DNA of 64,000 nucleotides from Escherichia coli (lineage in GTDB: Bacteria > Pseudomonadota > Gammaproteobacteria > Enterobacterales > Enterobacteriaceae): the NCBI RefSeq assembly GCF_050920415.1, contig NZ_CP169309.1; one strand, written 5' to 3'. The stretch's first letter is position 1; every line of letters starts with the position of its first letter. The position numbers were made by a program, and so were the translations under genes. Shown here in pieces: positions 3,510 through 64,000 of the stretch. The notes below the pieces were generated by a model, which did not search any database, was not told where the DNA came from, and saw only the letters and a program-made list of their open reading frames with translations.

Positions 3510-3596
3510 AACATTTAAGCTGATGACCACCACGCTTTTTATTGACCATTTTGCACGCAAACTGGAAAACCTGGCGTCGTCATCTATTCTTAAAGG

Positions 3597-3699
3597 GCAA
3601 GGCAACTAAGCCTGCATTAATGCCAACTTTTAGCGCACGGCTCTCTCCCAAGAGCCATTTCCCTGGACCGAATACAGGAATCGTGTTCGGTCTCTTTTT
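3597..3699 (+). ncRNA. sdsR: SdsR (RyeB) RpoS-dependent sRNA
   Basis: Sequence GCAAGGCAACTAAGCCTGCATTAATGCC...CCGAATACAGGAATCGTGTTCGGTCTCTTTTT matches SdsR as recalled; sigmaS-like -10 TCTATTCTT at 3582..3590; 3' terminator hairpin plus T-run. Confidence 0.7.
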
Positions 3700-45114: not shown

Positions 45115-45216
45115 TGGGTTCTCACTTCCTGACCATCAAAATTGACAACCTCACCATCCTATAATTGACTGAAAAGGAATTAATCCCCGCAACTGGTGAA
45201 ACATAAAACACGAATC

Positions 45217-46140: not shown

Positions 46141-46197
46141 TTAATGATTCAATTATCGGGTTGATATCGGGTTAAAACCTGATTTTCTCCTTTCTAA

Positions 46198-46905
<708 letters not shown>

Positions 46906-46912
46906 TGCTTTC

Positions 46913-46932
46913 AGCCCGCGTTATCGCGGGCT
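46913..46932 (+). terminator. candidate terminator of leuE
   Basis: stem AGCCCGCG / CGCGGGCT, loop TTAT; weak T-tract. Confidence 0.5.
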
Positions 46933-46988
46933 TCCTGCCTGTAATCTTTCCTTATTCATCGCTGATACGGTGCTAAAAAGTAACCAAT

Positions 46989-47011
46989 AAATGGTATTTA
47001 AAATGCAAATT
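46989..47011. promoter_or_regulatory. candidate NsrR operator upstream of yeaR
   Basis: AAATGGTATTT-A-AAATGCAAATT resembles the 11-1-11 NsrR inverted repeat (AAGATGCATTT-N-AAATGCATCTT); ~70 nt upstream of yeaR. Confidence 0.45.
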
Positions 47012-47077
47012 ATCAGGCGTACCCTGAAACGGCTGAAATAAACTGTTTTCAGCACATTCATCGAAGGAGGGAAAAGG

Positions 47078-47437
47078 ATGCTGCAAATCCCACAGAATTA
47101 TATTCATACGCGCTCAACGCCTTTCTGGAATAAACAAACTGCGCCTGCCGGAATATTCGAACGTCATCTTGATAAAGGAACGCGCCCGGGGGTATACCCA
47201 CGCCTTTCCGTTATGCATGGGGCGGTCAAATATCTCGGCTACGCTGATGAACACAGTGCAGAACCTGATCAGGTGATCCTTATCGAAGCGGGGCAGTTTG
47301 CGGTGTTTCCGCCAGAAAAGTGGCACAACATTGAAACCATGACTGACGATACTTATTTCAACATTGACTTCTTCGTTGCTCCTGAAGTCCTGATGGAAGG
47401 CGCGCAACAACGGAAAGTCATTCATAACGGGAAATGA
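47078..47437 (+). CDS. yeaR: DUF1971 protein YeaR
   Basis: ORF 119 aa. Confidence 0.9.
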   Translation: MLQIPQNYIHTRSTPFWNKQTAPAGIFERHLDKGTRPGVYPRLSVMHGAVKYLGYADEHSAEPDQVILIEAGQFAVFPPEKWHNIETMTDDTYFNIDFFVAPEVLMEGAQQRKVIHNGK

Positions 47438-47440
47438 ATC

Positions 47441-47623
47441 ATGGGCAAAGCAACGTATACCGTGACCGTTACCAATAACAGCAATGGTGTTTCTGTCGAT
47501 TATGAAACAGAGACGCCGATGACTTTGCTGGTGCCAGAAGTGGCGGCTGAAGTGATAAAAGATCTGGTGAATACCGTGCGTTCTTATGACACGGAAAACG
47601 AACATGATGTTTGTGGTTGGTAA
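47441..47623 (+). CDS. yoaG: DUF1869 protein YoaG
   Basis: ORF 60 aa, 3 nt downstream of yeaR. Confidence 0.85.
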   Translation: MGKATYTVTVTNNSNGVSVDYETETPMTLLVPEVAAEVIKDLVNTVRSYDTENEHDVCGW

Positions 47624-47770
47624 TTATCACTGATCGTAGATGGCGCAATTTCTGCGCCATCGCAAAAAAATCCTCCGTGATGCTTGTCACAAATCTTGCC
47701 CTCCTGATGTTGTGCTATGCTTTTTATCAGCGACTAACCCGCTAATGCAAAACAGATAAGTGAGGAAACA

Positions 47771-48019
47771 ATGGGCATTCTGTCATGGATTATTTTTGGG
47801 CTTATTGCCGGTATTCTGGCGAAGTGGATCATGCCAGGTAAAGATGGTGGTGGATTCTTTATGACTATCCTGCTGGGAATAGTCGGTGCCGTAGTCGGCG
47901 GATGGATCAGCACGCTGTTTGGCTTTGGTAAAGTCGATGGCTTCAATTTTGGCAGCTTCGTGGTTGCCGTTATTGGTGCGATTGTCGTGCTGTTTATCTA
48001 CAGAAAGATCAAAAGTTAA
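47771..48019 (+). CDS. yeaQ: GlsB/YeaQ/YmgE-family small membrane protein
   Basis: ORF 82 aa, Gly-rich TM helices. Confidence 0.85.
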   Translation: MGILSWIIFGLIAGILAKWIMPGKDGGGFFMTILLGIVGAVVGGWISTLFGFGKVDGFNFGSFVVAVIGAIVVLFIYRKIKS

Positions 48020-48032
48020 CGCGTAAATTGCA

Positions 48033-48067
48033 CAAAGGCTGCACACAGGCAGCCTTTGCTATTTTTT
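48033..48067 (+). terminator. intrinsic terminator of yeaQ
   Basis: stem CAAAGGCTGC / GCAGCCTTTG followed by CTATTTTTT. Confidence 0.8.
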
Positions 48068-48077
48068 AGATGTGACG

Positions 48078-48152
48078 TTACCACCATCCCAACTCAGTGC
48101 CGAGAACGACAATAATCGCTACGCCCATCATAATAATCGTTGTTTTTTTCAT
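48078..48152 (-). CDS. yoaJ: small membrane protein YoaJ
   Basis: 24-codon ORF MKKTTIIMMGVAIIVVLGTELGWW read by eye on minus strand; not in ORF track. Confidence 0.7.
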   Translation of the reverse strand: MKKTTIIMMGVAIIVVLGTELGWW

Positions 48153-48154
48153 CT

Positions 48155-48253
48155 TTATGCTCCCGGGGCAGCATAGCCGCCAATAAAAAACCATGCTAAA
48201 AATACGACCGCTGTAATAAAGATTACAACCGGAAAAATAATACCGATTCGCAT
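48155..48253 (-). CDS. yoaK: small membrane protein YoaK
   Basis: 32-codon ORF MRIGIIFPVVIFITAVVFLAWFFIGGYAAPGA read by eye; stop 2 nt before the yoaJ ATG. Confidence 0.7.
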   Translation of the reverse strand: MRIGIIFPVVIFITAVVFLAWFFIGGYAAPGA

Positions 48254-48285
48254 GTTATCACCAATCAAAAGGATGTGAATACGCC

Positions 48286-49311
48286 TCAGGAATGTAGCAC
48301 TGAATGCGCGACAAAAGGTGTTTTCTGTTTGTGTTTTTTCTCCTGATACATCGCGATATCGGCAGCATGCAGGGCGCTGTCTGCATCGGTCGTTTCAGGA
48401 TCGACTTCTACTATGCCAAGACTGGCACCAGGATAATACAAATCAACATCACCTAAGTGATATTCTCCGCGTATTTGCTGTTGAATACGTTCTCGCAGCG
48501 ATGGAATATCCGCATTCTCATTGTTCAGTGAAACAACCAAAAACTCATCACCGCCGAGACGACCAATAACTTCGCCATTTTGCTGGAGCGTATTAAGGCG
48601 CTCGCCAACCTGAATAAGAAACAGATCGCCACTATTATGACCAAAACGATCATTGATTAATTTGAAGTTATCCAGATCGATAAATGCGATCATTATCTTA
48701 TGGTTAAGATGCCGGGCGAGGGAAAACAGCGTCGTCAGATTTTCAAAAATCGCCCGCCGATTTGGTAACCCGGTTAACGAGTCGGTATACGATTGCGCAA
48801 TCAGCGCGGCATTGGCTTCGCGCAGCTGTTCTACCAGCGCCTCTTTTTGAATATATTGTGCAATCAGTCCGGCGAATAACTGCAAAACCTGTTCCGCGCG
48901 TTCACTCCACTGGCGCTTCTCACTGCTGGCGGCGCAAAGCGTGCCATAGAATGATCCATCCGGTAAGTGAATTGGCGTGCTCAGAAATGTGGTGATGCCA
49001 AGATTGCGTGCCGCAATACAGTCGCCCCAACGGTCGGGGACTTCATCGCTGAAAAAGCAGTTTTCATCAATGGCGCGTTTGCATAACGAGTAATCCCACG
49101 AGACGGTAAAATTCTCCGGGATGTGCATTTTCTGGCTGTTACGGGCAAACATTATATGCTGCAGGCGCGCTTCGACATCCACTTTGGTCAGGTAGGTTGA
49201 TTCCATATCAGTGACCATTTCCAGCATCTCCAGAAGCTGTCGGACCAGACTTTCCAGTGACTGTTCTTTGGCAAGGGATTGCGAGACGCGGGCGATAATC
49301 TGATCTGACAC
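48286..49311 (-). CDS. dgcP: diguanylate cyclase DgcP
   Basis: ORF 48286..49440; GTG start giving (M)SDQIIARVSQ..., 341 aa; GAF-like N-domain and GGDEF motif RLGGDEFLVV. Confidence 0.9.
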   Translation of the reverse strand: MSDQIIARVSQSLAKEQSLESLVRQLLEMLEMVTDMESTYLTKVDVEARLQHIMFARNSQKMHIPENFTVSWDYSLCKRAIDENCFFSDEVPDRWGDCIAARNLGITTFLSTPIHLPDGSFYGTLCAASSEKRQWSERAEQVLQLFAGLIAQYIQKEALVEQLREANAALIAQSYTDSLTGLPNRRAIFENLTTLFSLARHLNHKIMIAFIDLDNFKLINDRFGHNSGDLFLIQVGERLNTLQQNGEVIGRLGGDEFLVVSLNNENADIPSLRERIQQQIRGEYHLGDVDLYYPGASLGIVEVDPETTDADSALHAADIAMYQEKKHKQKTPFVAHSVLHS

Positions 49312-49493
49312 GAAACAACTCCAGGATACGGCGGGTAAATGCTGATTATTTAATCTTTGCAGGCATGATAAAACATCATCAACAAAGATGAAACAAGGCG
49401 TAATATGATTTGAGTGAATGTAATAAAAATAGTGCTGCAAAACAAAACGATACCGCGATACTCTAAGCCTGGATAAATATGTGAGATCAATAA

Positions 49494-49748
49494 ATGAAAA
49501 TTATCAGTTTTGTTCTGCCTTGCTTGCTGGTCCTGGCTGGTTGTTCAACCCCTTCTCAGCCAGAAGCACCTAAACCGCCGCAGATTGGTATGGCAAATCC
49601 GGCGTCGGTCTATTGCCAGCAGAAGGGCGGGACGCTCATTCCTGTGCAGACAGCGCAAGGGGTCAGCAACAATTGCAAATTACCGGGCGGTGAAACGATT
49701 GATGAATGGGCATTGTGGCGACGGGACCATCCGGCTGGTGAAAAATAA
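49494..49748 (+). CDS. yoaF: DUF333 lipoprotein YoaF
   Basis: ORF 84 aa with lipobox LAGC. Confidence 0.85.
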   Translation: MKIISFVLPCLLVLAGCSTPSQPEAPKPPQIGMANPASVYCQQKGGTLIPVQTAQGVSNNCKLPGGETIDEWALWRRDHPAGEK

Positions 49749-49769
49749 CCGCCGGATGCTGCACTAAAA

Positions 49770-50117
49770 TCACAAGCTACGTAGCCAGTCGGCCAGCACC
49801 AGCGCATGGTTCTGCGTGGTGTTTTTTGCTGAGTAGAGCAGGGTCAGCGGCTGTTTTTTGGCGATGTCTGCCAGCCGCTTTCCTTCTTGCTCGTGTTGCG
49901 TCAGTTCTGCAAGATATTGCTCGCGAAAGGTTGCAAAATCGACGACTTCGCCGTGAAAGGCTTTGCGCAGTTCCGTTGACGGCGTGATTTCTTTATCCCA
50001 CTCATCAAGGGCTAAATCGGTTTTTTTGATACCGCGTGGCCAGAGGCGGTCGACCAGTACGCGATAACCATCGCTCTGTTCAGCCGGATCATAAACGCGT
50101 TTGCACTGAATATTCAT
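49770..50117 (-). CDS. yeaO: DUF488 protein YeaO
   Basis: ORF 49770..50138; start at MNIQCKRVYD... gives 115 aa. Confidence 0.85.
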   Translation of the reverse strand: MNIQCKRVYDPAEQSDGYRVLVDRLWPRGIKKTDLALDEWDKEITPSTELRKAFHGEVVDFATFREQYLAELTQHEQEGKRLADIAKKQPLTLLYSAKNTTQNHALVLADWLRSL

Positions 50118-50171
50118 CGTATTTGTTCTCCCTTTCACGCATGATTTGTCACGTCACTATAGCACCGGATA

Positions 50172-51353
50172 TTAGCGAATTTCTTTGTCTCTCCCGGCGC
50201 AAAGTCCGAAAATCGCCATCAGTAGTGAAAGTATTGCAACACCCATCAGTGGTACGGACCAGTCACCGTTAGCATCGTGTATTTTACCCATCAGTGGCGG
50301 CCCACAGGCTGCCAGCAAATACCCGACGGATTGTGCCATCCCCGAGAGTGCCGCCGCCTGATGCGCAGAACTTGCCCGCAGACCAATGAACGTCAACCCC
50401 AGTATCATTGTTGCGCCGGAACCAAAACCGAAAAGCAGAGTCCAGGTGATCGCGTGTGCTGGCATAAAGCAGAGCCCAACCGCGCCCACTGCGCACATCA
50501 AGGCAACGAACGCTGCAATACCACGCTGATCTTTCACATGATGTAAGAAAAGTGGGATCAGCAAGCCGGGAGCTGCTGTGGCTAGTTGCAGCAAACCATG
50601 CAGTGAACCCGCCTGTGCTTCGCTATAGCCGTGACTGATGAGGATCGCCGGAAGCCAGCCAATAATCACGTAATAGACCAGTGAGTTGATCCCAAGAAAC
50701 AATGTCACCTGCCAGGCAAGCGGCGAACGCCAGATACCCCGAGTATGTAAGGCGCGTGAGGTACTCAAATTTGCATGTTGTTGACTTCGCCACTGTGGCA
50801 GCCATAAAAAAAGAGCCAGCAGAGGAAAACACATCAGCATGAGCAACGCGCCTTGCCAGCCAAAACCGTTCAAAGCCAGCGGCACTACCATAGCCGATCC
50901 CAGTGCCGCCGCAGCTCCCATTGTCAGGGAATATGCGCCGGTAAGTCTGGCGACGGAATGAGGGAAATCGCGTTTAATTAATCCTGGCAGTAAGACATTG
51001 CCTAATGCAATCCCACCGCCAATGACCGCTGTACCGCCAAATAATAAGTAAGGCGAAGGGAGAGAGCGAATTGCAATACCAGCACAGATCAAAAGTAACG
51101 CGGCAAACAGGCTACGTTCCATACCAAAACGTCGCGCCACCGGGGCGGCCAGCGGTGAGATTAGCGCAAAGGCTAATAATGGCAGGGTGGTCAATAAGCC
51201 GGTTTGCGCCGTCGTTAGCGAGTAAGCGGAACGAATCGTATCCAGTAACGGTGCTGCGCCGGTAAAGGTGACGCGTAATGTTGTGGCAATCATCAGAATG
51301 CCAGCGATAAGGACAATCCTGTTTTTACCGCTTAATGAAGTTGAACAGGTCAT
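50172..51353 (-). CDS. nimT: MFS exporter NimT
   Basis: ORF 393 aa, 12-TM MFS. Confidence 0.9.
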   Translation of the reverse strand: MTCSTSLSGKNRIVLIAGILMIATTLRVTFTGAAPLLDTIRSAYSLTTAQTGLLTTLPLLAFALISPLAAPVARRFGMERSLFAALLLICAGIAIRSLPSPYLLFGGTAVIGGGIALGNVLLPGLIKRDFPHSVARLTGAYSLTMGAAAALGSAMVVPLALNGFGWQGALLMLMCFPLLALFLWLPQWRSQQHANLSTSRALHTRGIWRSPLAWQVTLFLGINSLVYYVIIGWLPAILISHGYSEAQAGSLHGLLQLATAAPGLLIPLFLHHVKDQRGIAAFVALMCAVGAVGLCFMPAHAITWTLLFGFGSGATMILGLTFIGLRASSAHQAAALSGMAQSVGYLLAACGPPLMGKIHDANGDWSVPLMGVAILSLLMAIFGLCAGRDKEIR

Positions 51354-51449
51354 ATGCTTCTCATTGTCACAAACGAGGCTGTACCTTACCGTTTTTATTG
51401 TTATGTTGAATCAAGCTAAAATGACAAAATATCGCTAAATTCTGACAAA

Positions 51450-52271
51450 ATGATGCACAGGTTGAATCTCAATGGCTATGAACCCGACCGACACCATGAA
51501 GCCGCGGTCGCATTTTGTATTCACGCCGGAACGGATGAGTTAACCAGTCCTGTACATCAGCACCGCAAAGGGCAGCTGATACTGGCGCTACATGGTGCAA
51601 TTACCTGTACGGTGGAAAATGCGTTGTGGATGGTGCCGCCGCAATATGCGGTTTGGATACCGGGAGGGGTGGAACATAGCAATCAAGTGACAGCTAACGC
51701 TGAACTCTGTTTTTTGTTTATAGAGCCCAGCGCAGTGACAATGCCGACAACATGTTGCACATTGAAAATATCGCCCTTATGCCGGGAATTAATTTTAACC
51801 CTGGCAAACAGGACGACGACTCAGCGTGCTGAGCCGATGACCCGCAGATTAATTCAGGTCCTGTTTGATGAACTCCCTCAGCAGCCACAACAACAGCTGC
51901 ACCTGCCCGTTTCTTCTCATCCTAAAATCCGCACGATGGTGGAGATGATGGCGAAAGAGCCCGTTGAGTGGGGCTCATTGGGGCAATGGGCTGGCTTTTT
52001 TGCGATGAGTGAACGCAATCTTGCCCGGCTGATAGTGAAAGAGACGGGGTTGAGTTTTCGCCAGTGGCGTCAGCAGTTACAGCTGATTATGGCGCTTCAG
52101 GGATTAGTGAAAGGCGATACTGTACAGAAAGTTGCTCATACGCTGGGGTATGATTCAACAACGGCCTTTATTACTATGTTTAAGAAAGGCCTGGGGCAAA
52201 CGCCAGGCCGATATATTGCGGGATTAACTACTGTTTCCCCACAATCAGCGAAACCAGACCCGCGGCAATAA
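51450..52271 (+). CDS. nimR: AraC-family regulator NimR
   Basis: ORF 273 aa; cupin-like N-domain and AraC HTH C-domain. Confidence 0.9.
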
Positions 52272-52674
52272 GCGGGCCAACCGGTACGCCGCGAAACAGC
52301 GCCACGCCCAAAACAGTGCCCACCAGCAGCCCGGCGACCAGTTGCGGCTGGCTGCCCATTAACGTCACGCCGCGCCCACCTAGCCAGGAGACAATAACGC
52401 CTACTGCAATTGCCACCAGCGATTTCCAGTTCAGAAACGAGTGAATCAGGGTTGAGGGCGGTAGCGTCCCGCTGGCGATGGGGGCCATAACGCCAATCGT
52501 CAGAATGATTATCCCGATACTTAGCCCCTGTTTTTCAATCCACGGGAAAAAGGTGCTTAACGGTGTGACGCGGACAATGATTAACACCAGAATTGAAACG
52601 GCCACAGTGGTGTTATGACTGATAAAGCCCAGCGCAGCTAACCCGAGCAGGATCAGCAAAGTGACATCAAACAT
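52228..52674 (-). CDS. yeaL: UPF0756 membrane protein YeaL
   Basis: ORF 148 aa; 3' end overlaps nimR 3' end by 44 nt. Confidence 0.85.
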
Positions 52675-52842
52675 CGTGGTTTCCTTGCCAAAAAATAATA
52701 AGCCTGCTTACTTTACGCTTGCTGCAGGAAGGAAGTAGAAAATCTTTACGTTTTTTGCATAAAAAATCAGGCGAACTGTCATCAAACTGCCATTTGTACA
52801 CGCTATCAATAACGTGAAAACAGTTATCTCCCGGGGCATACC

Positions 52843-52947
52843 ATGAACGATCAAATGTTCGTTGAGACACTGATTATCACGTCATCGTTTTTTGTTATTG
52901 CTGTTGTGCTGGTTTTGTCCGTTCTGCTTATTGAACGGACAGGCTAG
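52843..52947 (+). CDS. yoaI: small membrane protein YoaI
   Basis: 34-codon [37 protein letters not shown] read by eye; not in ORF track. Confidence 0.7.
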
Positions 52948-53451
52948 TTACGCAGTGCGGCGGAAATTGACCAGTTCTGGTTGCGCAATGCGCAAATAAT
53001 CCGCAGTTTTCAAAATAACGGATTTATTCAGCATGCCTGCATTAAAGGCGATTTCATCGAATCGCTCGAAGAGCAATGGGTCGGCGACCAGTTTGAGTTT
53101 TGGATGGAAGCTGAAAGGGGGGATCGCGCCGAAGACACAGCCTGTGAGTTCATCGACTTCCGCCGGGCTGGCCAACGAAGCGCGTAATCCGCCTATATGG
53201 CTGGCGAGTTGGCTCAGATCGGCCTGTTGATCGGCCGCGAGGATCGCCAGAACATGTTGATTTACACCATTGCCTTTGACTTTACATACCAGTGCCTTAG
53301 CCCCCTGGCCTAAAGCGGTGCCACGAATTTCTGACACCGCTTCACATTTACCTACCGCTTCATGGGTAACGACGCGGAAGTCAGCACCTTCTTGTGATAA
53401 TAAAGCGATTAACCGCTGATGCGTCACGCTTCCTTTAGCCATTTCAGTCAT
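52948..53451 (-). CDS. yeaK: YbaK/ProX-family aminoacyl-tRNA deacylase
   Basis: ORF 167 aa. Confidence 0.9.
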   Translation of the reverse strand: MTEMAKGSVTHQRLIALLSQEGADFRVVTHEAVGKCEAVSEIRGTALGQGAKALVCKVKGNGVNQHVLAILAADQQADLSQLASHIGGLRASLASPAEVDELTGCVFGAIPPFSFHPKLKLVADPLLFERFDEIAFNAGMLNKSVILKTADYLRIAQPELVNFRRTA

Positions 53452-53493
53452 TTCATGCTCCTGAGATTACAAGCAAACAACCACAGAAGGTTA

Positions 53494-54984
53494 TCATGAA
53501 CGGCTGTTTTTGTTCTGCTTATTGACATATAAACGCTCATCGGAAGCTTTATATGCATCATGTAACGTATCGTTTTCTTTCATCGCGTAAATACCGGAAG
53601 AGAAGCCGATCTCTTTCTGAGGCGCGATATGTTGCAGACGTTTTTCGATACGTTCAGGCAGTTGTGCTGCAATTTGCGGCGTCGAATCGACAAGAATGAT
53701 GCAGAATTCATCGCCACCGAGTCGGATGGCATAATCACTTTTACGAATCGACTGTTTAATCGCCTGAGCTAATAACGTAATCGCTAAATCCCCCTCCTGA
53801 TGACCGAGGGTGTCATTTATTTGCTTTAACTTGTCCATGTCAATTGCAATAAACATCACCGAAGAACCGGATTGCACCAGTTTCTGCAACCGCTGCTCCA
53901 GTTCAGGGGTTAAAATTTTGCGATTATACAGTCCAGTCATCGCATCACTAATATTTTCTCGCGACACGTTTTGGTATAAACGGAAGTGCATCCGGACCAT
54001 ATTCAGCAAAATTAACGCCGTCAAAATCCAGAACAGAACGCTTTTCCACGAAGACGTGATAAAGTAAAGAATATCAATGGATAACGAGACACGAATACCG
54101 CCCGGTAAGTCATGGACGTAACTGACATACTGGAACAGATTATCTTCGCTCTGGTTGATGATAATGTCGCGCCCTGAATCTGTATCAGTTAGCGTGACAT
54201 TGAGAAAACGCCAGAGGAGAGGGCGGTCATGAGTGTAAAAGATATTCCGCAGATTGTTTTTGTTAATATCCAGCAGCACAATCCCTTTTAGCTGCCCTGC
54301 GACATATACCGGCGTCAGCAAACTCATCACGTTCTGTTTAGTACGCTGATCCTGGTAAATGCTCGATAATACGGTACGCCCGGTAAATACCTTTTCAATA
54401 TCTTTGCGATCGATGCCAATACTTCCTGACTGCAGGAAGGACCAGTTATTCATCGCAAAGTACTCAACATTAACCGGCTCATAAAAATAGACATAGCGGT
54501 CATTGAGATCGAGATAATAGTGAAATTTCTCTTCGGCCATTCCAAGACCTGAACCGTAATCATCCTGGTGGCGGTTGCCTTCCACTGCCTGATCAAAAGC
54601 GGGTAATAGTGCTGCAGCTTCCACAATTGTGTCGCAGTCAGTGGATGCGGTTTGTAGTGTGCCGCGTAAGCCCGGGTATTTATGGGCAGTCAGGTTTAAG
54701 CCATGGGTATTATTGGCAGACTCAAAAGCCTCGCAGATGGCGCGCCGCTGTTCTGGCGACACTTCCGACTGCTCAGCAGCGAGAGCGCGCATCACATGCG
54801 CGGCAATACTCTGATTCTGATACTTATCATAAAGAAAGGAGGAATCTGCTCTCTGCACGATATAGCGCAGATAGGCACTCATTGCTCTGTCGCTGGCGAC
54901 AAGTTCAAAAATAAGGAAGGAAGATGTCAGCACAATGACACTTGCGGCGATAAAATGCCGGAGCATTCTATGGTGCAATTTCAT
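53494..54984 (-). CDS. dgcJ: membrane-anchored diguanylate cyclase DgcJ
   Basis: ORF 53494..55164; start at MKLHHRMLRHF... gives 496 aa; canonical GGDEF (RLGGDEFCII). Confidence 0.9.
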   Translation of the reverse strand: MKLHHRMLRHFIAASVIVLTSSFLIFELVASDRAMSAYLRYIVQRADSSFLYDKYQNQSIAAHVMRALAAEQSEVSPEQRRAICEAFESANNTHGLNLTAHKYPGLRGTLQTASTDCDTIVEAAALLPAFDQAVEGNRHQDDYGSGLGMAEEKFHYYLDLNDRYVYFYEPVNVEYFAMNNWSFLQSGSIGIDRKDIEKVFTGRTVLSSIYQDQRTKQNVMSLLTPVYVAGQLKGIVLLDINKNNLRNIFYTHDRPLLWRFLNVTLTDTDSGRDIIINQSEDNLFQYVSYVHDLPGGIRVSLSIDILYFITSSWKSVLFWILTALILLNMVRMHFRLYQNVSRENISDAMTGLYNRKILTPELEQRLQKLVQSGSSVMFIAIDMDKLKQINDTLGHQEGDLAITLLAQAIKQSIRKSDYAIRLGGDEFCIILVDSTPQIAAQLPERIEKRLQHIAPQKEIGFSSGIYAMKENDTLHDAYKASDERLYVNKQNKNSRS

Positions 54985-55164
54985 GATAAATGGCACTCCT
55001 TCGGTTAGTGAAACGAGAAAACCAGATAAAGTTCGATTGCGGCCTGGCACAGGGGCGCTAATTATACTCATCTCTGCGCCGCTGGGGAGGGGAAATTTAG
55101 GGGTAATAGTAATAAATTGTATGCAAAAGCCACGCAAAAAGCATGGCTCTGAATATTTTTGCAC

Positions 55165-56640
55165 TTAAATATGATGAATAATCACTTTGTTGCCCCCCTC
55201 GCTTTTCGCTTCGCGTAAGGCTTTATCTGCTTCCGTCATGACAAGCGAGATATTACGCGTGTCACCCGTTGAAAAAACCGTGCCAATACTGATGGTCATT
55301 TGTTCAGGAACATCATATCTGTTACTAAAACCGGTCAGGAGTTCGACATTTTTACGCATACGTTCCGCAATGATTTTTGCCTGGGCACTATTGAGTTCGG
55401 TAAATAGCAAGCCAAACACCTCACCCTCCAGTCGCGCTAAAATATCATCGGGGCGGATGCTTTGCTGGATAATATCGACAATTGAAACCAGCACTTTATC
55501 ACCCACACGATGTCCCCATTGGGCATTGATGCGCTTGAACTGATTAATATCAACCAGCATGACACAAAAGTCCTTAACAACAGGTCGCGACAATAATGAC
55601 TCTACGCTGTTGAAAAAGTAGCGCCGATTATAAATATTGGTCAGTACATCATGAACTGCCAGTTTGCTGGAGAGTTGCAGTTCCTGAAAAATGTTATAAA
55701 TCAGAAAAGACACAACAAACAGTTTACTGGAAACTTCAATCCCGCGACTGATATACCAGATGGTGTAATTATACTCATCCAGAGTCAGTAGAAGTAAGTT
55801 GCAGCATAGCGATGCCAGACATAATAATGCTATTAACGGCCATAGTTCGCTGGCTAATCGTGTACGCATGATAATAAAGAACAGTAAAAATGCCCACAGA
55901 CAAACCAATATTTTTGTATAGTTGATTCCCCAGGTCGCAGTATGGTTGTCCGGACAGTAATCGACGACATACAAAGAATAGTCAGCGTTATAACTGCTCA
56001 GATTGTGTGCCAGAAGGGGAAAAAATAAAAAAGGAATCAGCGCCAGCAACAGAATGCCAGTTTTTTTCTTATTGTTGTCAAGGATGTTGTCTTTCCCATA
56101 ACAAAAGAGCGCCAGCGAGGTTAAACAAATGAAACTGAGTTGGCGGAAAATATAGAAAATAGAAACATCATTCGACTTTGTCTGGATCAGTGTACTGCCG
56201 TTGATTGGTTTATGGATAATTACAATGGTTTCAACTAAATAGATAAGGCCACTTAAAAATGCAAGGCTTAAAATGAGTGTTGGTAAAATTTGTTTGTTAG
56301 TGAAATACTTCATTAACATGAAAAGAAAAATGACGGCGTTAAGGAAAAACAAAGCCACAACAACCATCAGGTAATTCATCTGTGGGATGAGTTTTACATT
56401 CGTGTTTTCGTTATATAAGGTAGTAATGCAAAATAAAATTAACGTCAGCAATAAGCTGAAAATAAAAAAGCCTTGAGCTTTTAATTTTTGTGTACCCATA
56501 GAAGCCATAAAAAGGAGAGCAATGTGAGTGCTGGATTTTATTGATGGCAGAGATATATGGTTTTGACCAGGATCAATTTTCGTTGACGATAAAAAATAAT
56601 TAAAGAATAACCCCAGGGAAATACGTGTTGACCGAATCAT
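55165..56640 (-). CDS. yeaI: degenerate GGDEF-domain membrane protein YeaI (CdgI)
   Basis: ORF 491 aa; multi-TM N-terminus; GGDEF position reads EGEVF (RLEGEVFGLL); AT-rich coding sequence. Confidence 0.9.
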   Translation of the reverse strand: MIRSTRISLGLFFNYFLSSTKIDPGQNHISLPSIKSSTHIALLFMASMGTQKLKAQGFFIFSLLLTLILFCITTLYNENTNVKLIPQMNYLMVVVALFFLNAVIFLFMLMKYFTNKQILPTLILSLAFLSGLIYLVETIVIIHKPINGSTLIQTKSNDVSIFYIFRQLSFICLTSLALFCYGKDNILDNNKKKTGILLLALIPFLFFPLLAHNLSSYNADYSLYVVDYCPDNHTATWGINYTKILVCLWAFLLFFIIMRTRLASELWPLIALLCLASLCCNLLLLTLDEYNYTIWYISRGIEVSSKLFVVSFLIYNIFQELQLSSKLAVHDVLTNIYNRRYFFNSVESLLSRPVVKDFCVMLVDINQFKRINAQWGHRVGDKVLVSIVDIIQQSIRPDDILARLEGEVFGLLFTELNSAQAKIIAERMRKNVELLTGFSNRYDVPEQMTISIGTVFSTGDTRNISLVMTEADKALREAKSEGGNKVIIHHI

Positions 56641-56786
56641 TTTTCCGAATGATTGTTTTCTGAAACTAAATTGTGTAAAGGTTATGCTGTCATATTTAAA
56701 GCGATTGTAAGCTAATGTATGTAATAAATGAGATAATTTACAGTGAGCTAAAAATCAGCCAGGCGATAATGACCCGGCTGACAGTT

Positions 56787-58082
<1,296 letters not shown>

Positions 58083-58182
58083 CTACATTTGCCAACTGTT
58101 TGCTACGCCTGTGTTGCCGCTTCTCTGGCCCACGGTTCGCTGTCGTTGTAGGCCCGGTAGCATGCGTACCGGGCCATGGTTG

Positions 58183-60117
58183 TTAAGACGATTTACGTAC
58201 GCGCAAATACCATTCGCACAGTAAACGCACCTGTTTACGGGTGTAGCCTTTTTCCATCATACGGTCGACAAAATCGTCGTGTTTCTTCTGCTCGTCGGTT
58301 GACGTTTTGGCGTTAAACGAAATAACTGGCAACAGCTCCTCGGTATTAGAGAACATTTTCTTCTCAATAACCGTGCGCAGTTTTTCATAGCTGGTCCAGT
58401 TCGGATTGCGTCCGCTGTTATTCGCTCTGGCGCGCAGTACGAAGTTGACAATCTCGTTGCGGAAATCTTTTGGATTACTGATCCCCGCCGGTTTCTCAAT
58501 TTTCTCCAGCTCAGCGTTGAGAGATTCGCGGTCAAATAGCTGCCCGGTATCCGGGTCGCGATACTCCTGATCCTGAATCCAGAAATCTGCATACGTGACA
58601 TAACGGTCAAAAATGTTTTGTCCATATTCAGAATAGGATTCAAGATACGCAGTCTGAATCTCTTTACCGATAAACTCAGCATATTTCGGAATCAAGTAAC
58701 CTTTCAGGAACTCGAGATAACGCTCAGCCTGCTCCTGAGGGAACTGCTCGCGCTCGATCTGCTGTTCCAGGACGTAGAACAGATGGACCGGGTTTGCCGC
58801 CACTTCTACATGATCGAAGTTGAACACGCGAGAGAGGATCTTAAACGCAAAACGCGTGGACAGACCGTTCATCCCTTCATCAACGCCTGCGTAGTCACGA
58901 TATTCCTGATACGACTTGGCTTTCGGATCGGTGTCTTTCAGACTTTCGCCATCATAAACCCGCATCTTCGAATAAATGCTGGAGTTTTCCGGCTCTTTCA
59001 GACGCGAAAGAATGGAAAAACGAGACAGCGTTTCCAGCGTGCCAGGTGCGCAGGGGGCGTGAGTCAGTTCACTGTGATTAAGCAATTTCTCGTAGATTTT
59101 GATCTCTTCGGAAATACGCAAGCAATATGGCACCTTCACGATATAAACACGATCGAGGAAGGCTTCGTTGTTCTTGTTATTACGGAAAGTGACCCATTCG
59201 GATTCGTTCGAATGGGCGAGAATAATCCCGTTAAACGGCAAGGCGGAGATACCTTCCGTCCCGTTGTAGTTACCTTCCTGAGTGGCGGTTAACAGGGGAT
59301 GCAGCACTTTAATCGGTGCTTTAAACATCTCGACAAACTCCATGATCCCCTGGTTGGCGCGGCATAGTGCACCGGAATATCCGTAGGCGTCTGGATCGTT
59401 CTGCGCGTAGTGTTCGAGTTTACGGATATCGACTTTCCCTACCAGCGCTGAGATGTCCTGGTTGTTCTCATCGCCAGGTTCCGTTTTGGCGATAGCAATT
59501 TGTTGCAGAATTGACGGCCAGACCTTTACCACCCGGAACTTAGTAATATCGCCACCAAATTCATGCAGGCGTTTTGCTGCCCACGGCGACATGATGGTGC
59601 CAAGATAGCGTCGAGGAATGCCATACTCTTTTTCCAGAATCTGCGCATCTTCTTGCGGATTGAAAAGACAGAACGGATGATCGTTGACCGGGCTCCGCTC
59701 ACCGTTAGCGCTTAATACATAGATCGGCACGAGCTGCATTAATGATTTCAGTCGCTCAGCAAGCGATGATTTACCCCCACCCACAGGCCCCAGCAGATAC
59801 AGGATTTGTTTCTTCTCCTCCAGCCCCTGAGCCGCGTGTTTCAGATAAGAGACAATCTGTTCAATCGCGTCTTCCATGCCGTAAAACTCTTCAAAGGCCG
59901 GGTAACGTGCAATGACCCGGTTAGAAAAGAGTCGAGAAAGTCTGGGTTCCTGGGCTGTATCGACCATGACAGGCTCACCGATAGCCATCAATAGCCGCTC
60001 AGCCGCGTTGGCATAAGCACTGCGATCTTGCCGACAAGTGGTAAGAAACTCCTGCAGTGTGAACTCTTCGTCCTTGGCAGCTTCATATCGCTGGCGATAG
60101 TGATCGAATATATTCAT
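58183..60117 (-). CDS. yeaG: PrkA-family serine protein kinase YeaG
   Basis: ORF 644 aa; Walker A GPVGGGKSS visible. Confidence 0.95.
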   Translation of the reverse strand: MNIFDHYRQRYEAAKDEEFTLQEFLTTCRQDRSAYANAAERLLMAIGEPVMVDTAQEPRLSRLFSNRVIARYPAFEEFYGMEDAIEQIVSYLKHAAQGLEEKKQILYLLGPVGGGKSSLAERLKSLMQLVPIYVLSANGERSPVNDHPFCLFNPQEDAQILEKEYGIPRRYLGTIMSPWAAKRLHEFGGDITKFRVVKVWPSILQQIAIAKTEPGDENNQDISALVGKVDIRKLEHYAQNDPDAYGYSGALCRANQGIMEFVEMFKAPIKVLHPLLTATQEGNYNGTEGISALPFNGIILAHSNESEWVTFRNNKNNEAFLDRVYIVKVPYCLRISEEIKIYEKLLNHSELTHAPCAPGTLETLSRFSILSRLKEPENSSIYSKMRVYDGESLKDTDPKAKSYQEYRDYAGVDEGMNGLSTRFAFKILSRVFNFDHVEVAANPVHLFYVLEQQIEREQFPQEQAERYLEFLKGYLIPKYAEFIGKEIQTAYLESYSEYGQNIFDRYVTYADFWIQDQEYRDPDTGQLFDRESLNAELEKIEKPAGISNPKDFRNEIVNFVLRARANNSGRNPNWTSYEKLRTVIEKKMFSNTEELLPVISFNAKTSTDEQKKHDDFVDRMMEKGYTRKQVRLLCEWYLRVRKSS

Positions 60118-60220
60118 GGTATGCCGTCCTTTCGTTTTTTAGCACAGGTTAAGAGCCGTTCATATGAATAGTAGAGGCTCCCGGAAGAGGTAAACTGAAC
60201 GACGTCTCTTGCTAAAACAC

Positions 60221-60236
60221 AGCAACTCTCATGCCA
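60221..60236 (-). promoter_or_regulatory. candidate sigma54 (-24/-12) promoter of yeaG-yeaH
   Basis: minus strand reads TGGCAT-GAGAG-TTGCT versus consensus TGGCAC-N5-TTGCW; ~100 nt upstream of yeaG ATG. Confidence 0.55.
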
Positions 60237-60552
60237 TTTTATCGACGATGAGAACAACGTGCCCGGTGATACACCTTCAAAATTAAGCGTAGATGGCAAA
60301 TGGAAAACTTGCCTGCACGGCTTTCTTAATTTCAATGGCATATCAACAACTCATCCATAAAATTTGCATAATTAATGTAAAGACCAGGGTCGCCAGTAAC
60401 GCGTAATTCATTTGGCTGTAAGCGTGGTGTCATCTGCGTCAGGAAAATTAAACAGTTACTTTAAAAAATGAAAACGTAAAAAGGTTGGGTTTCGATGTAT
60501 TGACGGGTAAACTTTGTCGCCCGCTAAACATTTGTTTAAGGAATGATTAATT

Positions 60553-61299
60553 GTGACCAAACTCAAACTTCTGGCACTTGGAGTGCTTATCGCAACGTCT
60601 GCAGGCGTAGCGCACGCTGAAGGTAAATTTTCCCTGGGCGCAGGCGTAGGTGTCGTTGAACACCCATATAAAGATTACGATACCGATGTTTACCCAGTAC
60701 CGGTAATCAACTATGAAGGCGATAACTTCTGGTTCCGTGGCTTAGGTGGTGGTTACTACCTGTGGAATGACGCAACGGATAAACTTTCAATTACCGCTTA
60801 CTGGTCGCCGCTTTACTTCAAAGCTAAAGACAGTGGCGATCACCAAATGCGTCACCTGGATGACCGTAAGAGCACCATGATGGCTGGTCTGTCTTATGCT
60901 CACTTTACCCAGTACGGTTACCTGCGTACCACCCTGGCTGGCGATACCCTGGATAACAGCAACGGCATCGTCTGGGATATGGCCTGGTTGTATCGTTACA
61001 CCAACGGTGGCCTGACCGTGACTCCGGGTATTGGTGTGCAGTGGAACAGCGAAAACCAGAACGAATACTATTATGGCGTATCGCGCAAAGAGTCTGCGCG
61101 CAGCGGTCTGCGTGGCTATAACCCGAACGACAGCTGGAGCCCTTACCTGGAGCTAAGTGCCAGCTACAACTTCCTCGGTGACTGGAGTGTTTACGGTACC
61201 GCGCGCTACACCCGTCTGTCTGATGAAGTTACTGACAGCCCAATGGTGGATAAATCCTGGACTGGCCTGATTTCTACCGGGATCACCTACAAATTCTGA
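60553..61299 (+). CDS. mipA: MltA-interacting outer membrane protein
   Basis: ORF 248 aa with signal peptide; beta-barrel-like ending in aromatic residue. Confidence 0.95.
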   Translation: MTKLKLLALGVLIATSAGVAHAEGKFSLGAGVGVVEHPYKDYDTDVYPVPVINYEGDNFWFRGLGGGYYLWNDATDKLSITAYWSPLYFKAKDSGDHQMRHLDDRKSTMMAGLSYAHFTQYGYLRTTLAGDTLDNSNGIVWDMAWLYRYTNGGLTVTPGIGVQWNSENQNEYYYGVSRKESARSGLRGYNPNDSWSPYLELSASYNFLGDWSVYGTARYTRLSDEVTDSPMVDKSWTGLISTGITYKF

Positions 61300-61388
61300 T
61301 AATGCATCTTTCCAGGGCATTTTGTGCATAAAAACAGGGCGTAACGCCCTGTTTTGCATTACGGTGGTGCAATACCTGGGAGGAAACA

Positions 61389-62243
61389 ATGCAACAAAAA
61401 ATGATTCAATTTAGTGGCGATGTCGCACTGCCAGCCATAGGGCAGGGAACATGGTATATGGGCGAAGATGCCAGTCAGCGTAAAACAGAAGTTGCTGCAC
61501 TACGCGCGGGCATTGAACTCGGTTTAACCCTCATTGATACCGCCGAAATGTATGCCGATGGCGGTGCCGAAAAAGTGGTTGGGGAAGCATTAATCGGTCT
61601 GCGTGAGAACGTCTTTCTCGTCTCTAAAGTCTATCCGTGGAATGCTGGCGGGCAAAAAGCGATAAATGCATGCGAAGCCAGTTTACGCCGTCTCAATACT
61701 GATTATCTCGATCTCTACTTATTACACTGGTCTGGCAGTTTCGCTCTCGAAGAGACTGTCGCAGCGATGGAAAAATTGATCGCCCAGGGAAAAATCCGCC
61801 GCTGGGGCGTTTCTAACCTTGATTATGTCGATATGCAGGAACTCTGGCAGCTGCCGGGGGGAAATCAGTGTGCCACTAATCAGGTGCTTTACCATCTCGG
61901 TTCACGAGGGATTGAGTACGATTTACTTCCCTGGTGCCAGAAACAGCAGATGCCGGTGATGGCTTACAGTCCATTAGCCCAGGCCGGGCGGTTGCGCAAT
62001 GGACTGTTAAAAAATGCGGTAGTCAACGAAATTGCACATGCTCACAATATCAGTGCGGCACAAGTATTGTTGGCGTGGGTAATCAGCCATCAGGGTGTGA
62101 TGGCGATTCCAAAAGCGGCAACTGTCGCACATGTCCAACAAAATGCGGCTGTGCTTGAGGTTGAACTTTCGTCAGCGGAATTAGTTATGCTGGATAAAGC
62201 GTATCCGGCACCAAAAGGAAAAACTGCGCTGGATATGGTGTGA
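61389..62243 (+). CDS. yeaE: aldo-keto reductase (methylglyoxal reductase-like)
   Basis: ORF 284 aa. Confidence 0.9.
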   Translation: MQQKMIQFSGDVALPAIGQGTWYMGEDASQRKTEVAALRAGIELGLTLIDTAEMYADGGAEKVVGEALIGLRENVFLVSKVYPWNAGGQKAINACEASLRRLNTDYLDLYLLHWSGSFALEETVAAMEKLIAQGKIRRWGVSNLDYVDMQELWQLPGGNQCATNQVLYHLGSRGIEYDLLPWCQKQQMPVMAYSPLAQAGRLRNGLLKNAVVNEIAHAHNISAAQVLLAWVISHQGVMAIPKAATVAHVQQNAAVLEVELSSAELVMLDKAYPAPKGKTALDMV

Positions 62244-62252
62244 TGTTGATAC

Positions 62253-62277
62253 GTGCCGGATGCATCGCACCCGGCAC
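62253..62277. repeat. palindromic hairpin (possible bidirectional terminator or degenerate REP) between yeaE and yeaD
   Basis: GTGCCGG...CCGGCAC inverted repeat with 11-nt loop; left arm resembles GCCGGATGC of REP consensus. Confidence 0.4.
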
Positions 62278-62293
62278 ACAATATTAACGCAAA

Positions 62294-63178
62294 TTAACGT
62301 TTCGCAACGCGAATGGATTGCGCCAGATGTGCAGGTTTCTCTTTGGTGACTTTTTGCGTTTCTGAAGCGTATGCCGTTTCTACACAAACAAAGGTCTTGT
62401 AGCCATCATCCGGCATATCGCCCATGCTAACTGAAAGCGCCGGTCCTGGGTTCCAGCCTACAACGTTCAGATGATGCTGGTGGCCTACGGCGATAATACG
62501 ATTCAGCGCTTCGTCATTAATTACGCTGCAATCTTGCGGATTCAGATACACGCGATCGGTACGGTCAGGGAAGGTCTGAATACCGTCGGTCAGTACATCT
62601 TCTTTCGCGTCATTTACTTTATCAATGAAGCGATCGCCTAGTCCACTGACGCTTACCTTAGCGATATCACCCACGTTAAAGTAGGTATGCAGAGCAGAGG
62701 TAGTTTCAAATTCGCCGTGTGCTTCAAGATCGATTTCACAGGTTTTACCCACGTGGAAATGCGCTAACAGCGTAAAGTCGTGCGGCCAGAATTTTTTCGT
62801 CTCTTCGCTTTGTGTCAATTCAAAAGTCAGCGCTACACCATCAGCATCTTCACGATGTGATTTCAGCGTCCACGGCAGGTTGCGGGCAAAACCGTGCGCA
62901 GGCAGACCTTGTTGTGCAGCCGGACCAAACCACGGCCAGCAAACCGGTATGCCACCGCGAATGGCGACGCCATTTTTGAACGGTGTGTTGTTACTCAACC
63001 ACAGAACTTCTTCTTCACCCGCAGGTTTCCACGAGAGAAGGTGTGCGCCCTGTAATGCAAAAGAGGCTTTTACCTGGGGATGATCGACCACAATGAGGTC
63101 CAGTTCATCCAGTTTACGACGGGAGAGGACAGGGGAGATTTGTTCGATGACCGGAAGGGCAAAAATTTTCTTAATCAT
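62294..63178 (-). CDS. yeaD: putative glucose-6-phosphate 1-epimerase (aldose epimerase family)
   Basis: ORF 62294..63199; start at MIKKIFALPVIEQ... gives 294 aa. Confidence 0.9.
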   Translation of the reverse strand: MIKKIFALPVIEQISPVLSRRKLDELDLIVVDHPQVKASFALQGAHLLSWKPAGEEEVLWLSNNTPFKNGVAIRGGIPVCWPWFGPAAQQGLPAHGFARNLPWTLKSHREDADGVALTFELTQSEETKKFWPHDFTLLAHFHVGKTCEIDLEAHGEFETTSALHTYFNVGDIAKVSVSGLGDRFIDKVNDAKEDVLTDGIQTFPDRTDRVYLNPQDCSVINDEALNRIIAVGHQHHLNVVGWNPGPALSVSMGDMPDDGYKTFVCVETAYASETQKVTKEKPAHLAQSIRVAKR

Positions 63179-63210
63179 GACGCAGTCCTTTAACTTCATT
63201 TTATCAGGTA

Positions 63211-63240
63211 AAAAAAAGAGCGACCGAAGTCGCTCTTTTT
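63211..63240 (-). terminator. intrinsic terminator of gapA (bidirectional with yeaD)
   Basis: stem GAGCGAC / GTCGCTC, loop CGAA, flanked by A7 and T5 runs. Confidence 0.85.
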
Positions 63241-63261
63241 AGATCACAGAGTCATCTCAAC

Positions 63262-64000
<739 letters not shown>

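Follow-up and report, generated by a model that had tools for sequence, protein, structure and literature searches.

CdgI (YeaI) of Escherichia coli, most likely a non-catalytic c-di-GMP-binding GGDEF protein encoded beside the diguanylate cyclase DgcJ

PelD from P. aeruginosa and PopA from C. crescentus are degenerate-GGDEF receptors that bind c-di-GMP through the RxxD inhibitory site (I-site). E. coli itself has active cyclases of the MASE4-GGDEF type, DgcT (YcdT) and DgcX. The E. coli protein CdgI (YeaI) has been described as carrying a degenerate A-site and an intact I-site, and its purified GGDEF domain binds c-di-GMP (Sarenko 2017, PMC5635695, Fig. S4). The same study detected no expression of CdgI under standard conditions, found the protein toxic on over-production, and reported heteromeric contacts between GGDEF domains (PMC5635695). 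The K-12 annotation already calls CdgI a c-di-GMP-binding protein. On its cyclase activity the literature is divided, PMC5635695 and PMC10459773 treating it as degenerate or non-functional ('catalytically non-functional YeaI (CdgI)' in the words of PMC10459773) and PMC3484386 and PMC6824119 as active. Spurbeck 2012 (PMC3484386) counted YeaI as one of several proteins with 'verified diguanylate cyclase activity', and found that WspR, a cyclase, complements the biofilm defect of CFT073 ΔyeaI in no-salt LB but not in glycerol minimal medium. Sanchez-Torres 2011, as cited by PMC6824119, is the source for yeaI raising c-di-GMP in BW25113. Finally, yeaI was flagged as foreign by three predictors and is among 78 listed 'promoter islands', its island being bound by H-NS in all ChIP data sets considered (Panyukov & Ozoline 2013, PMC3661553, Table 1).

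In this study we focus on a 64-kb stretch of E. coli DNA (hereafter the window) that contains cdgI and its neighbour dgcJ. Here we determined domain architecture and motif states, base composition and synteny, compared the orthologs and assessed purifying selection. The c-di-GMP binding and the H-NS occupancy, like silence and toxicity, are taken from the literature, and inactivity of CdgI as a cyclase and its mode of output are inferred. We favour, with a probability of roughly 85%, the reading that these are two GGDEF genes with unrelated sensors, of which dgcJ would encode a conventional cyclase and cdgI, bound by H-NS, an inactive c-di-GMP binder.

The RefSeq names dgcJ and cdgI fit both open reading frames, an E. 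coli chromosome being 100% identical to the window across 53000-57200. Gene coordinates were carried over from the closest genome, which differs from the window at 1-3668, with the sequences at both ends of a gene serving as its anchors. Both frames lie on the minus strand, exactly where the initial annotation had placed them (Table 1). The cdgI region is found in 99% of the complete E. coli genomes (5,386 of 5,426), and the exact 45-nt sequence around the EGEVF motif in 4,981 of the 5,426. An Rfam scan of positions 52500-58500 returned no credible known RNAs.

Table 1. Features of the dgcJ-cdgI locus, in window coordinates
Feature	Position	Strand	Basis
dgcJ (yeaJ) CDS, 496 aa, GAPES1 + GGDEF diguanylate cyclase	53494..54984	-	ORF, RefSeq annotation, Pfam
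DgcJ GGDEF domain, aa 346-494	53503..53949	-	Pfam E=6.1e-40, model positions 3-160
DgcJ GAPES1 periplasmic sensor domain, aa 31-304	54073..54894	-	Pfam E=9.7e-151
dgcJ-cdgI spacer, 180 bp, 45% GC; dgcJ frame open up to GTG at 55164	54985..55164	-	
cdgI (yeaI) CDS as annotated, 491 aa, MASE4 + degenerate GGDEF, 39.0% GC	55165..56640	-	ORF, RefSeq annotation, Pfam
CdgI GGDEF domain, aa 328-485	55186..55659	-	Pfam E=1.3e-44, model positions 1-161
CdgI degenerate A-site EGEVF, aa 405-409	55414..55428	-	translation
CdgI intact I-site RPDD (RxxD), aa 396-399, five residues (ILARL) before the A-site	55444..55455	-	translation
Longest <40% GC run in the 64-kb window, 1,390 bp; no other such run is mostly coding	55521..56910	.	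200-bp windows
CdgI MASE4 integral-membrane sensor domain, aa 88-319; coding part richest in AT, 37.2% GC	55684..56379	-	Pfam E=3e-48
Annotated cdgI codons 1-44, probably untranslated	56509..56640	-	ortholog starts, indels, substitution pattern
yeaH-cdgI spacer, 33.6% GC	56641..56786	-	composition
Promoter-like site in yeaH-cdgI spacer	56652-56679		
Terminator-like hairpin, directly 3' of the yeaH stop codon, in yeaH-cdgI spacer	56754-56782		

Both proteins match the GGDEF family profile (PF00990) over its full length, and their N-terminal domains belong to unrelated Pfam families, MASE4 in CdgI and GAPES1 in DgcJ. The description of the two genes as tandem paralogs turns out to be overstated: the BLASTP alignment covers the GGDEF domain only, with 28% identity across 153 aa. 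A recent tandem duplication was rejected on the same grounds, together with the closer relationship of CdgI to DgcT. Indeed, the nearest paralogue of CdgI is K-12 DgcT (37% identity over 445 aa, E=9e-99), and this full-length homology and the MASE4 domain place CdgI in the MASE4-GGDEF family (DgcT/DgcX/CdgI). In DgcJ the A-site is canonical: GGDEF occupies aa 423-427 (nt 53704-53718) within AIRLGGDEFCIIL, the translation reading RLGGDEF as the initial annotation had it, and the I-site is RKSD (nt 53734-53745). The product of dgcJ is a conventional membrane diguanylate cyclase, in which a GAPES1 periplasmic sensor is joined to an intact GGDEF domain.

At the equivalent position CdgI reads RLEGEVF, EGEVF lying within ARLEGEVFGLLF in the translation, and the GG[DE]EF signature is absent, which bears out the degenerate motif noted initially. 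The alignment reveals further changes at catalytic positions kept by active relatives, from DID to DIN, IND to INA and GRN to GGN. In PleD numbering, which we presume to be correct, these amount to D329 replaced by N, D336 by A, and R446 by G, in addition to E371 replaced by V and the first signature glycine changed by G368E. Equivalents of PleD D327, N335, D344, E370 and K442 are retained. In DgcT and in the Citrobacter ortholog, none of the metal, substrate and phosphate residues compared (D327, N335, D344, E370, E371, K442 and R446) has been lost. Because several substrate and metal residues are retained in CdgI, its A-site may still bind nucleotide or keep residual activity. The RxxD motif five residues from the A-site corresponds to what E. 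coli nomenclature calls the Cdg class, and R396 and D399 are invariant among 19 aligned homologs. The missing signature and the additional catalytic changes support the loss of cyclase activity that had been proposed for YeaI, and the kept RPDD with the published binding (PMC5635695) supports the proposed c-di-GMP receptor role.

The gene has a patchy occurrence at a conserved chromosomal position. YeaH was used to retrieve 80 species loci; a MASE4 gene follows yeaH in five of these, all of them Escherichia, and is missing from the other 75, where other genera show yeaH-dgcJ, yeaH-yeaK or different cargo. Separate look-ups yielded a few Citrobacter-like genomes or contigs that also carry a MASE4 gene in this slot, most Citrobacter having none there; in Citrobacter sp. 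Awk 4, as in related metagenome contigs, the order is yeaG-yeaH-[MASE4-GGDEF]-dgcJ-yeaK. These syntenic copies are canonical (GGEEF, DID, IND, GRN). Escherichia-side lineages read EGEVF, EGDVF, DGEVF, EGNVF or EGKRF and, in one Escherichia lineage (P0008), EGEEF with both glutamates present. As judged from the ortholog comparison, the catalytic A-site of CdgI was lost in the Escherichia lineage, since the same-slot Citrobacter orthologs keep GGEEF and the other catalytic residues, and it has drifted since while the I-site stayed invariant.

With respect to base composition, cdgI deviates from its host and is the most AT-rich of the 45 genes in the window (39.0% GC vs a mean of 51.6%, sd 2.3, for the 43 other genes of >=100 aa; z = -5.6), and its GC3 is also low (43.3% vs 54.0%, sd 4.7; z = -2.3). 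These values uphold the AT-richness that had been noted by eye for yeaI relative to its neighbours, and the composition of the yeaH-cdgI spacer does so for the region upstream, up to 56786. The second-lowest GC in the window is that of dgcJ (45.6%). AT-richness is common to all cdgI orthologs and to DgcT, and it is not linked to the degenerate motif, because the active dgcT and the Citrobacter orthologs with GGEEF (37-38% GC) are equally AT-rich. GC3 is about 42% in every cdgI ortholog and in dgcT, and synonymous sites are saturated between the E. coli and Citrobacter copies.

The earlier suggestion that yeaI was acquired horizontally gains support from the vacancy of the slot in 75 of 80 loci and from the published foreign-gene predictors; the suggestion of H-NS silencing is supported, as far as H-NS is concerned, by the ChIP occupancy of yeaI (PMC3661553). 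Concerning mobility signatures, no tRNA was found in window positions 45000-64000, no convincing direct repeats flank the locus, and no integrase, IS or mobile-element gene is annotated near cdgI in this strain. The published SrsR gSELEX peak and the RstA EMSA fragment fall within the yeaH-cdgI spacer. The published H-NS-bound promoter island of yeaI maps to about 56212-56515, inside the <40% GC run. This conversion of coordinates uses a genome-version offset that we assume to hold, and it agrees with the position of the SrsR peak. A simple sigma-70 consensus scan gave 8 promoter-like sites vs 11.5 expected and thus did not recover the published island, which had been defined by a different algorithm, PlatProm. 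Allowing <=2 mismatches, the 10-bp high-affinity H-NS motif occurs 1.2 times per kb in cdgI vs 1.6 per kb in the window, which is no enrichment.

The AT-richness could in principle be a mere by-product of the residues that a membrane domain favours, here Ile, Phe, Leu, Asn and Lys, and silent on foreign origin. Amino-acid composition indeed explains about two thirds of the shortfall in GC (expected GC from amino acids alone, 43.2% for cdgI vs 51.8% for the other genes), synonymous codon choice for about one third, and the drop is largest in GC1 (42% vs 59%). However, GC3 lies about 10 points under expectation as well (z -2.15), the soluble GGDEF part still has 43.9% GC and the flanking spacer 33.6%, and the membrane-protein genes nimT, yeaV and yebQ elsewhere in the window have 51-53%. 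Together with the patchy distribution at a conserved slot, these values make the by-product explanation unlikely. The replacement of the first signature glycine, the second glutamate and the phosphate-binding arginine speaks against another alternative, that CdgI is still an active, unusual diguanylate cyclase whose phenotypes come from its own c-di-GMP despite EGEVF. We consider it quite improbable. Secondary citations of raised c-di-GMP and of 'verified' activity (PMC3484386, PMC6824119) would fit such an enzyme, as would the five retained PleD equivalents and the two glutamates of lineage P0008; complementation of ΔyeaI by WspR in one medium counts for it, and the failure to complement in glycerol medium against it (PMC3484386). 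The Hengge and Römling laboratories, however, class CdgI as degenerate or non-functional (PMC5635695, PMC10459773), and an effect on the c-di-GMP pool could be indirect, via contacts with active cyclases (PMC5635695). Moreover, the A-site differs between close lineages, as would be expected of positions freed from catalytic constraint.

At the other extreme, cdgI could be a functionless decaying remnant, silenced by H-NS merely for its AT-richness and heading for loss. The ratio dN/dS within Escherichia (0.09-0.11 for cdgI; 0.08-0.11 for the GGDEF domain alone) shows that the gene is under purifying selection, with values of about 0.1 in both domains, and the reading frame is intact across Escherichia species despite a synonymous divergence of 0.5-0.8. 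Constraint is nevertheless 3-20 times more relaxed than on dgcJ, yeaK and yeaH, most Citrobacter lack the gene at the same slot, and the absence of detectable expression and the toxicity on over-production (PMC5635695) would also suit a remnant. Deletion, IS1-insertion and frameshift alleles exist as well, and the lesions of truncated proteins were identified as a 1-nt deletion and an IS1 junction. When these two alleles were probed in the 5,426 complete E. coli genomes neither was present, the wild-type site being found in 5,398. Frequent pseudogenisation, which truncated protein-database entries (P0013, P0019, P0025) had suggested, was dropped for this reason; member counts of protein clusters are not allele frequencies. 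With the gene region in 99% of complete genomes, an invariant I-site and reported deletion phenotypes, we hold decay to be highly improbable.

The annotated start of cdgI deserves attention. Orthologs of 445-448 aa begin at M45 or M48 (the latter at 56497-56499), and frame-breaking indels among Escherichia species fall inside the first 44 codons. Pairwise comparison of this segment gives 13 substitutions, every one nonsynonymous, with the three codon positions hit evenly, whereas 80-89% are at third positions downstream. By this pattern the first 44 annotated codons are probably non-coding, and the true start is likely the ATG at 56506-56508 (M45). Such a probable misannotation (491 aa vs about 447 aa) would affect expression constructs and promoter mapping.

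Taken as a mechanism, the two GGDEF genes would have arrived downstream of yeaH separately in time. CdgI would then have lost its A-site via G368E, E371V and R446G (PleD numbering) plus the DID to DIN and IND to INA changes, and would no longer make c-di-GMP. Because it kept the RxxD inhibitory site, it is most likely a membrane-anchored c-di-GMP-binding protein. Following Sarenko 2017, its output could consist of contacts between its GGDEF domain and those of other cyclases, which c-di-GMP and whatever MASE4 senses would modulate. The gene, AT-rich, H-NS-bound, essentially silent in laboratory culture and toxic if over-produced, would be released under particular conditions only, the published inputs being SrsR, RstA and CsrA.

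A bolder proposal, which we put forward as a doubtful possibility, is that CdgI lost its cyclase role recently and was retooled in Escherichia into a c-di-GMP-gated inhibitor or scaffold of other diguanylate cyclases, its low GC3 being actively maintained and its H-NS silencing selected. Low GC3 would then be a maintained property and not the fading relic of a transfer, because it is about the same in all orthologs and in dgcT despite saturated synonymous sites, and it would be maintained because H-NS silencing of a toxic membrane protein is itself selected. If this retooling occurred, the same-slot Citrobacter orthologs with GGEEF offer a natural before-and-after pair for the change from cyclase to receptor.

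Since the A-site state, c-di-GMP binding, silence and H-NS occupancy of CdgI are all published, the observation is correct and ordinary, and adds little to knowledge. Its modest additions are that the degeneration is dated to the Escherichia lineage with the I-site held under purifying selection, that the whole enterobacterial MASE4-GGDEF family is stably AT-rich irrespective of activity loss, and that the start codon of cdgI is probably misannotated.

Compared with known systems, the genes are those of E. coli K-12. DgcJ (YeaJ, b1786) is the same GAPES1-GGDEF protein with canonical GGDEF and RxxD, without notable difference. CdgI has 98% protein identity with its K-12 counterpart, with yeaH upstream, dgcJ downstream, and EGEVF and RPDD common to both; five of the 8 amino-acid differences lie inside the doubtful first 44 codons, and no functional difference is apparent. 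Like the promoter islands of Panyukov & Ozoline, cdgI is H-NS-bound, AT-rich and predicted to be foreign, its AT-rich run being confirmed here; the point of difference is that no mobility signature lies beside it. The architecture of CdgI is that of the active cyclases DgcT and DgcX, and dgcT is similarly AT-rich (38.6% GC), but CdgI has lost the GGEEF, DID, IND and GRN of DgcT. CdgI probably resembles PelD and PopA in combining a GGDEF fold whose A-site is non-catalytic with an RxxD that has been kept, and differs from them in the N-terminal module, which is MASE4 in CdgI, transmembrane/GAF in PelD and made up of receiver domains in PopA.

The GGDEF domain of CdgI (YeaI) has a degenerate catalytic A-site. 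Alignment of the two GGDEF domains places ARLEGEVFGLLF of CdgI opposite AIRLGGDEFCIIL of DgcJ, in agreement with the RLEGEVF and RLGGDEF-type motifs read by the initial annotation, whose coordinates and minus strand for both reading frames match exactly. The catalytic site was aligned among CdgI, DgcJ, DgcP, DgcT (the active MASE4-GGDEF paralogue of K-12), one Citrobacter ortholog and PleD. With residue numbers from a PleD sequence that we take to be correct, CdgI keeps the equivalents of D327, N335, D344, E370 and K442, and is changed at G368->E, E371->V, R446->G, D329->N and D336->A. The altered A-site and the E371->V and R446->G changes make the loss of cyclase activity, implied in the initial annotation, a sound prediction. 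The I-site RPDD (RxxD, residues 396-399) lies at canonical spacing. No solved structure of CdgI was found, the nearest solved chains belonging to ordinary cyclases, PleD and WspR among them.

Coordinates of the features discussed (window positions)
Feature	Position	Strand
Segment at prophage remnant	1-3668	
pdeD	26778-28376	
dgcP	48286-49311	
dgcJ (yeaJ)	53494-54984	-
Open frame upstream of dgcJ	54985-55164	-
cdgI (yeaI), as annotated	55165-56640	-
Longest stretch below 40% GC	55521-56910	
Promoter island in yeaI	about 56212-56515	
Likely true cdgI start (ATG)	56506-56508	-
Annotated cdgI codons 1-44, probably non-coding	56509-56640	-
Conserved block CATCAATAAAATCC	56533-56546	-
Conserved block TTGATCCTGGTCAAAAC	56560-56576	-
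Region of mipA and the extra base	about 60583-61299	

The genes are ordered yeaG, yeaH, cdgI, dgcJ, yeaK on the minus strand. The 4.2-kb region is present with at least 80% coverage in 5,386 of 5,426 complete E. coli genomes, and the exact 45-nt sequence coding ILARLEGEVFGLLFT in 4,981. One of the roughly 40 genomes without the region, SW070919, carries an IS1 element between dgcP and yeaH (5248-5945 in its locus), everything from yoaF to cdgI, dgcJ included, being deleted. Two further retrieved loci (L093 and L094; proteins P0013 and P0025) hold disrupted cdgI alleles, one having lost 1 nt after codon 345 and the other interrupted by IS1 after nt 818, and neither occurs in any of the 5,426 genomes. 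The four c-di-GMP signalling genes pdeD, dgcP, dgcJ and cdgI lie inside 30 kb, the last three inside 8.4 kb. Read upstream, the dgcJ frame meets no stop before a GTG at 55164 that directly adjoins the stop codon of cdgI, for an ORF of 556 aa; protein databases hold 560-aa entries labelled DgcJ, as well as cdgI-dgcJ fusion proteins (P0035 and P0026). From base 3669 on, the window and the chromosome of E. coli strain MFDS1022581 agree at 99.98-100% identity. The first segment finds no alignment in NZ_CP169399.1, which is nearly identical elsewhere but carries genes for prophage tail and baseplate at this point; the difference is specific to the strain and falls at a prophage remnant. Compared with NZ_CP169399.1, the window also has one extra base somewhere between yeaG and yeaE, where mipA lies; since mipA is annotated as frameshifted in NZ_CP169399.1, the copy in the window may be intact.

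The description of the two genes as tandem paralogs stands only in its loosest sense, that they are adjacent and both encode GGDEF domains. Their sensor domains differ, CdgI being MASE4+GGDEF and DgcJ GAPES1+GGDEF in Pfam, and BLASTP aligns the GGDEF domains alone, at 28% identity, while CdgI and DgcT of K-12 align over their full length at 37%. The pair does not stem from local duplication.

A large protein collection contains a graded series of CdgI homologs. In a 19-sequence alignment, EGEVF is shared by E. coli and a metagenomic form of 76% identity, EGNVF in E. albertii, EGDVF, DGEVF and EGEEF among 86-89% identical homologs, and EGKRF in a 64%-identical one. The proteins of Citrobacter sp. 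Awk 4 and NCU1 (58-62% identical) and all more distant MASE4-GGDEF proteins have the canonical GGEEF with DID, IND and GRN, and the I-site residues R396 and D399 do not vary (19/19). Contigs coding the homologs share the neighbourhood yeaG-yeaH-[MASE4-GGDEF]-dgcJ-yeaK, which makes the canonical Citrobacter genes orthologs of cdgI by position. Loss of the A-site took place on the Escherichia side, and the site has drifted from then on. Estimates of dN/dS within Escherichia are 0.09-0.11 for the whole of cdgI and 0.08-0.11 for the GGDEF domain, against 0.02-0.04 for dgcJ and <0.01 for yeaH; purifying selection therefore acts on the degenerate domain, though in relaxed form.

We surveyed 80 species-representative loci anchored on YeaH, with neighbouring genes located by tblastn. 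A MASE4 gene comes next after yeaH in the five Escherichia loci only; most Citrobacter have dgcJ or other cargo there, and in Enterobacter and many further genera yeaK is next. By genus, the junction (L012-L086, about 8280-10400 in locus coordinates) thus holds nothing, dgcJ alone or other genes, so that the slot is variable across Enterobacteriaceae; dgcJ, and later cdgI, were added to an ancestral yeaGH-yeaK arrangement. Judged by eye from translations, the other cargo includes methyltransferase, hemerythrin-like and acetyltransferase genes, all found among Citrobacter, as well as LysR regulator, glycosyltransferase and UspA-like genes. No tRNA, IS, integrase or flanking repeat was found around cdgI in this strain, which fits an old event. 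The older horizontal acquisition proposed initially agrees with these results and with published foreign calls.

The AT-richness noted by eye for yeaI and its upstream region is real and far beyond chance: cdgI has 39.0% GC against 51.6±2.3% in the 43 other window genes of at least 100 aa (z -5.6), its GC3 is 43.3% against 54.0±4.7%, the yeaH-cdgI spacer has 33.6% GC, and no longer stretch under 40% GC occurs in the 64 kb than the one lying here, which is also the sole such run that is mostly coding. dgcJ is second lowest (45.6%). Expected GC, computed from the amino-acid sequence and window-average synonymous codon usage, attributes about two thirds of the deficit to amino-acid composition and one third to synonymous choice. 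All cdgI orthologs have 35.6-39.2% GC (GC3 38-45%) while adjoining yeaH and yeaG have 47-52%, and this despite saturated synonymous differences between E. coli and Citrobacter copies (pS 0.82-0.85); active dgcT has 38.6%. AT-richness is therefore a persistent trait of the MASE4-GGDEF family, independent of A-site loss, and selection may keep cdgI AT-rich.

The annotated start of cdgI is probably too far upstream. Orthologs outside E. coli are 445-448 aa long and begin at M45 or M48 of CdgI; the paralogue DgcT, of 452 aa, starts at the equivalent place. Indels upstream of M45 between Escherichia species have lengths not divisible by three. When the copies of the window, K-12 and O157:H7 are compared in pairs, each of the 13 substitutions in codons 1-44 is nonsynonymous, and they fall evenly on the three codon positions, whereas past codon 45 80-89% fall at third positions; moreover, the annotated first codon in O157:H7 is not ATG. 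The protein is thus likely about 447 aa instead of 491. Two blocks strongly conserved across Escherichia species lie inside codons 1-44, upstream of the probable true start, and may be regulatory, as candidate promoter or operator elements.

The yeaI promoter island, positioned with a genome-version offset that we take to be correct and that is consistent with the SrsR peak, coincides with the GC minimum. SrsR is an activator of cdgI. Panyukov & Ozoline 2013 (PMC3661553) described this 304-bp island inside yeaI as occupied by H-NS in every ChIP data set, which agrees with the possible H-NS silencing suggested initially, and as called foreign by each of GIST, Nakamura 2004 and Lawrence & Ochman 1998. 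In EHEC, RstA binds a yeaI promoter fragment, and rstA deletion raises c-di-GMP synthesis genes (PMC6824119). YeaI (CdgI) has been called catalytically non-functional in print (PMC10459773). Against the consensus, the passages on YeaI in Spurbeck 2012 (PMC3484386) and the RstA paper present it as an active cyclase, via Sanchez-Torres 2011; in the former, yeaI complementation varied with medium.

The initial observation is correct and its interpretation sound, and the overall picture of cdgI, a named E. coli gene, was already established. Indeed, Sarenko et al. 2017 (PMC5635695) reported the degenerate A-site, the intact I-site and c-di-GMP binding by the purified domain, so that the proposed receptor role was already in print, as well as strong contacts with other GGDEF domains, toxicity on over-production and undetectable CdgI in standard culture; they suggested that CdgI may inhibit other cyclases, modulated by c-di-GMP. 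What the present analysis adds, on where the degeneration arose, on AT-richness throughout the family, on the pair not being a duplication and on the probable start codon, does not amount to something new, and refines this known picture.
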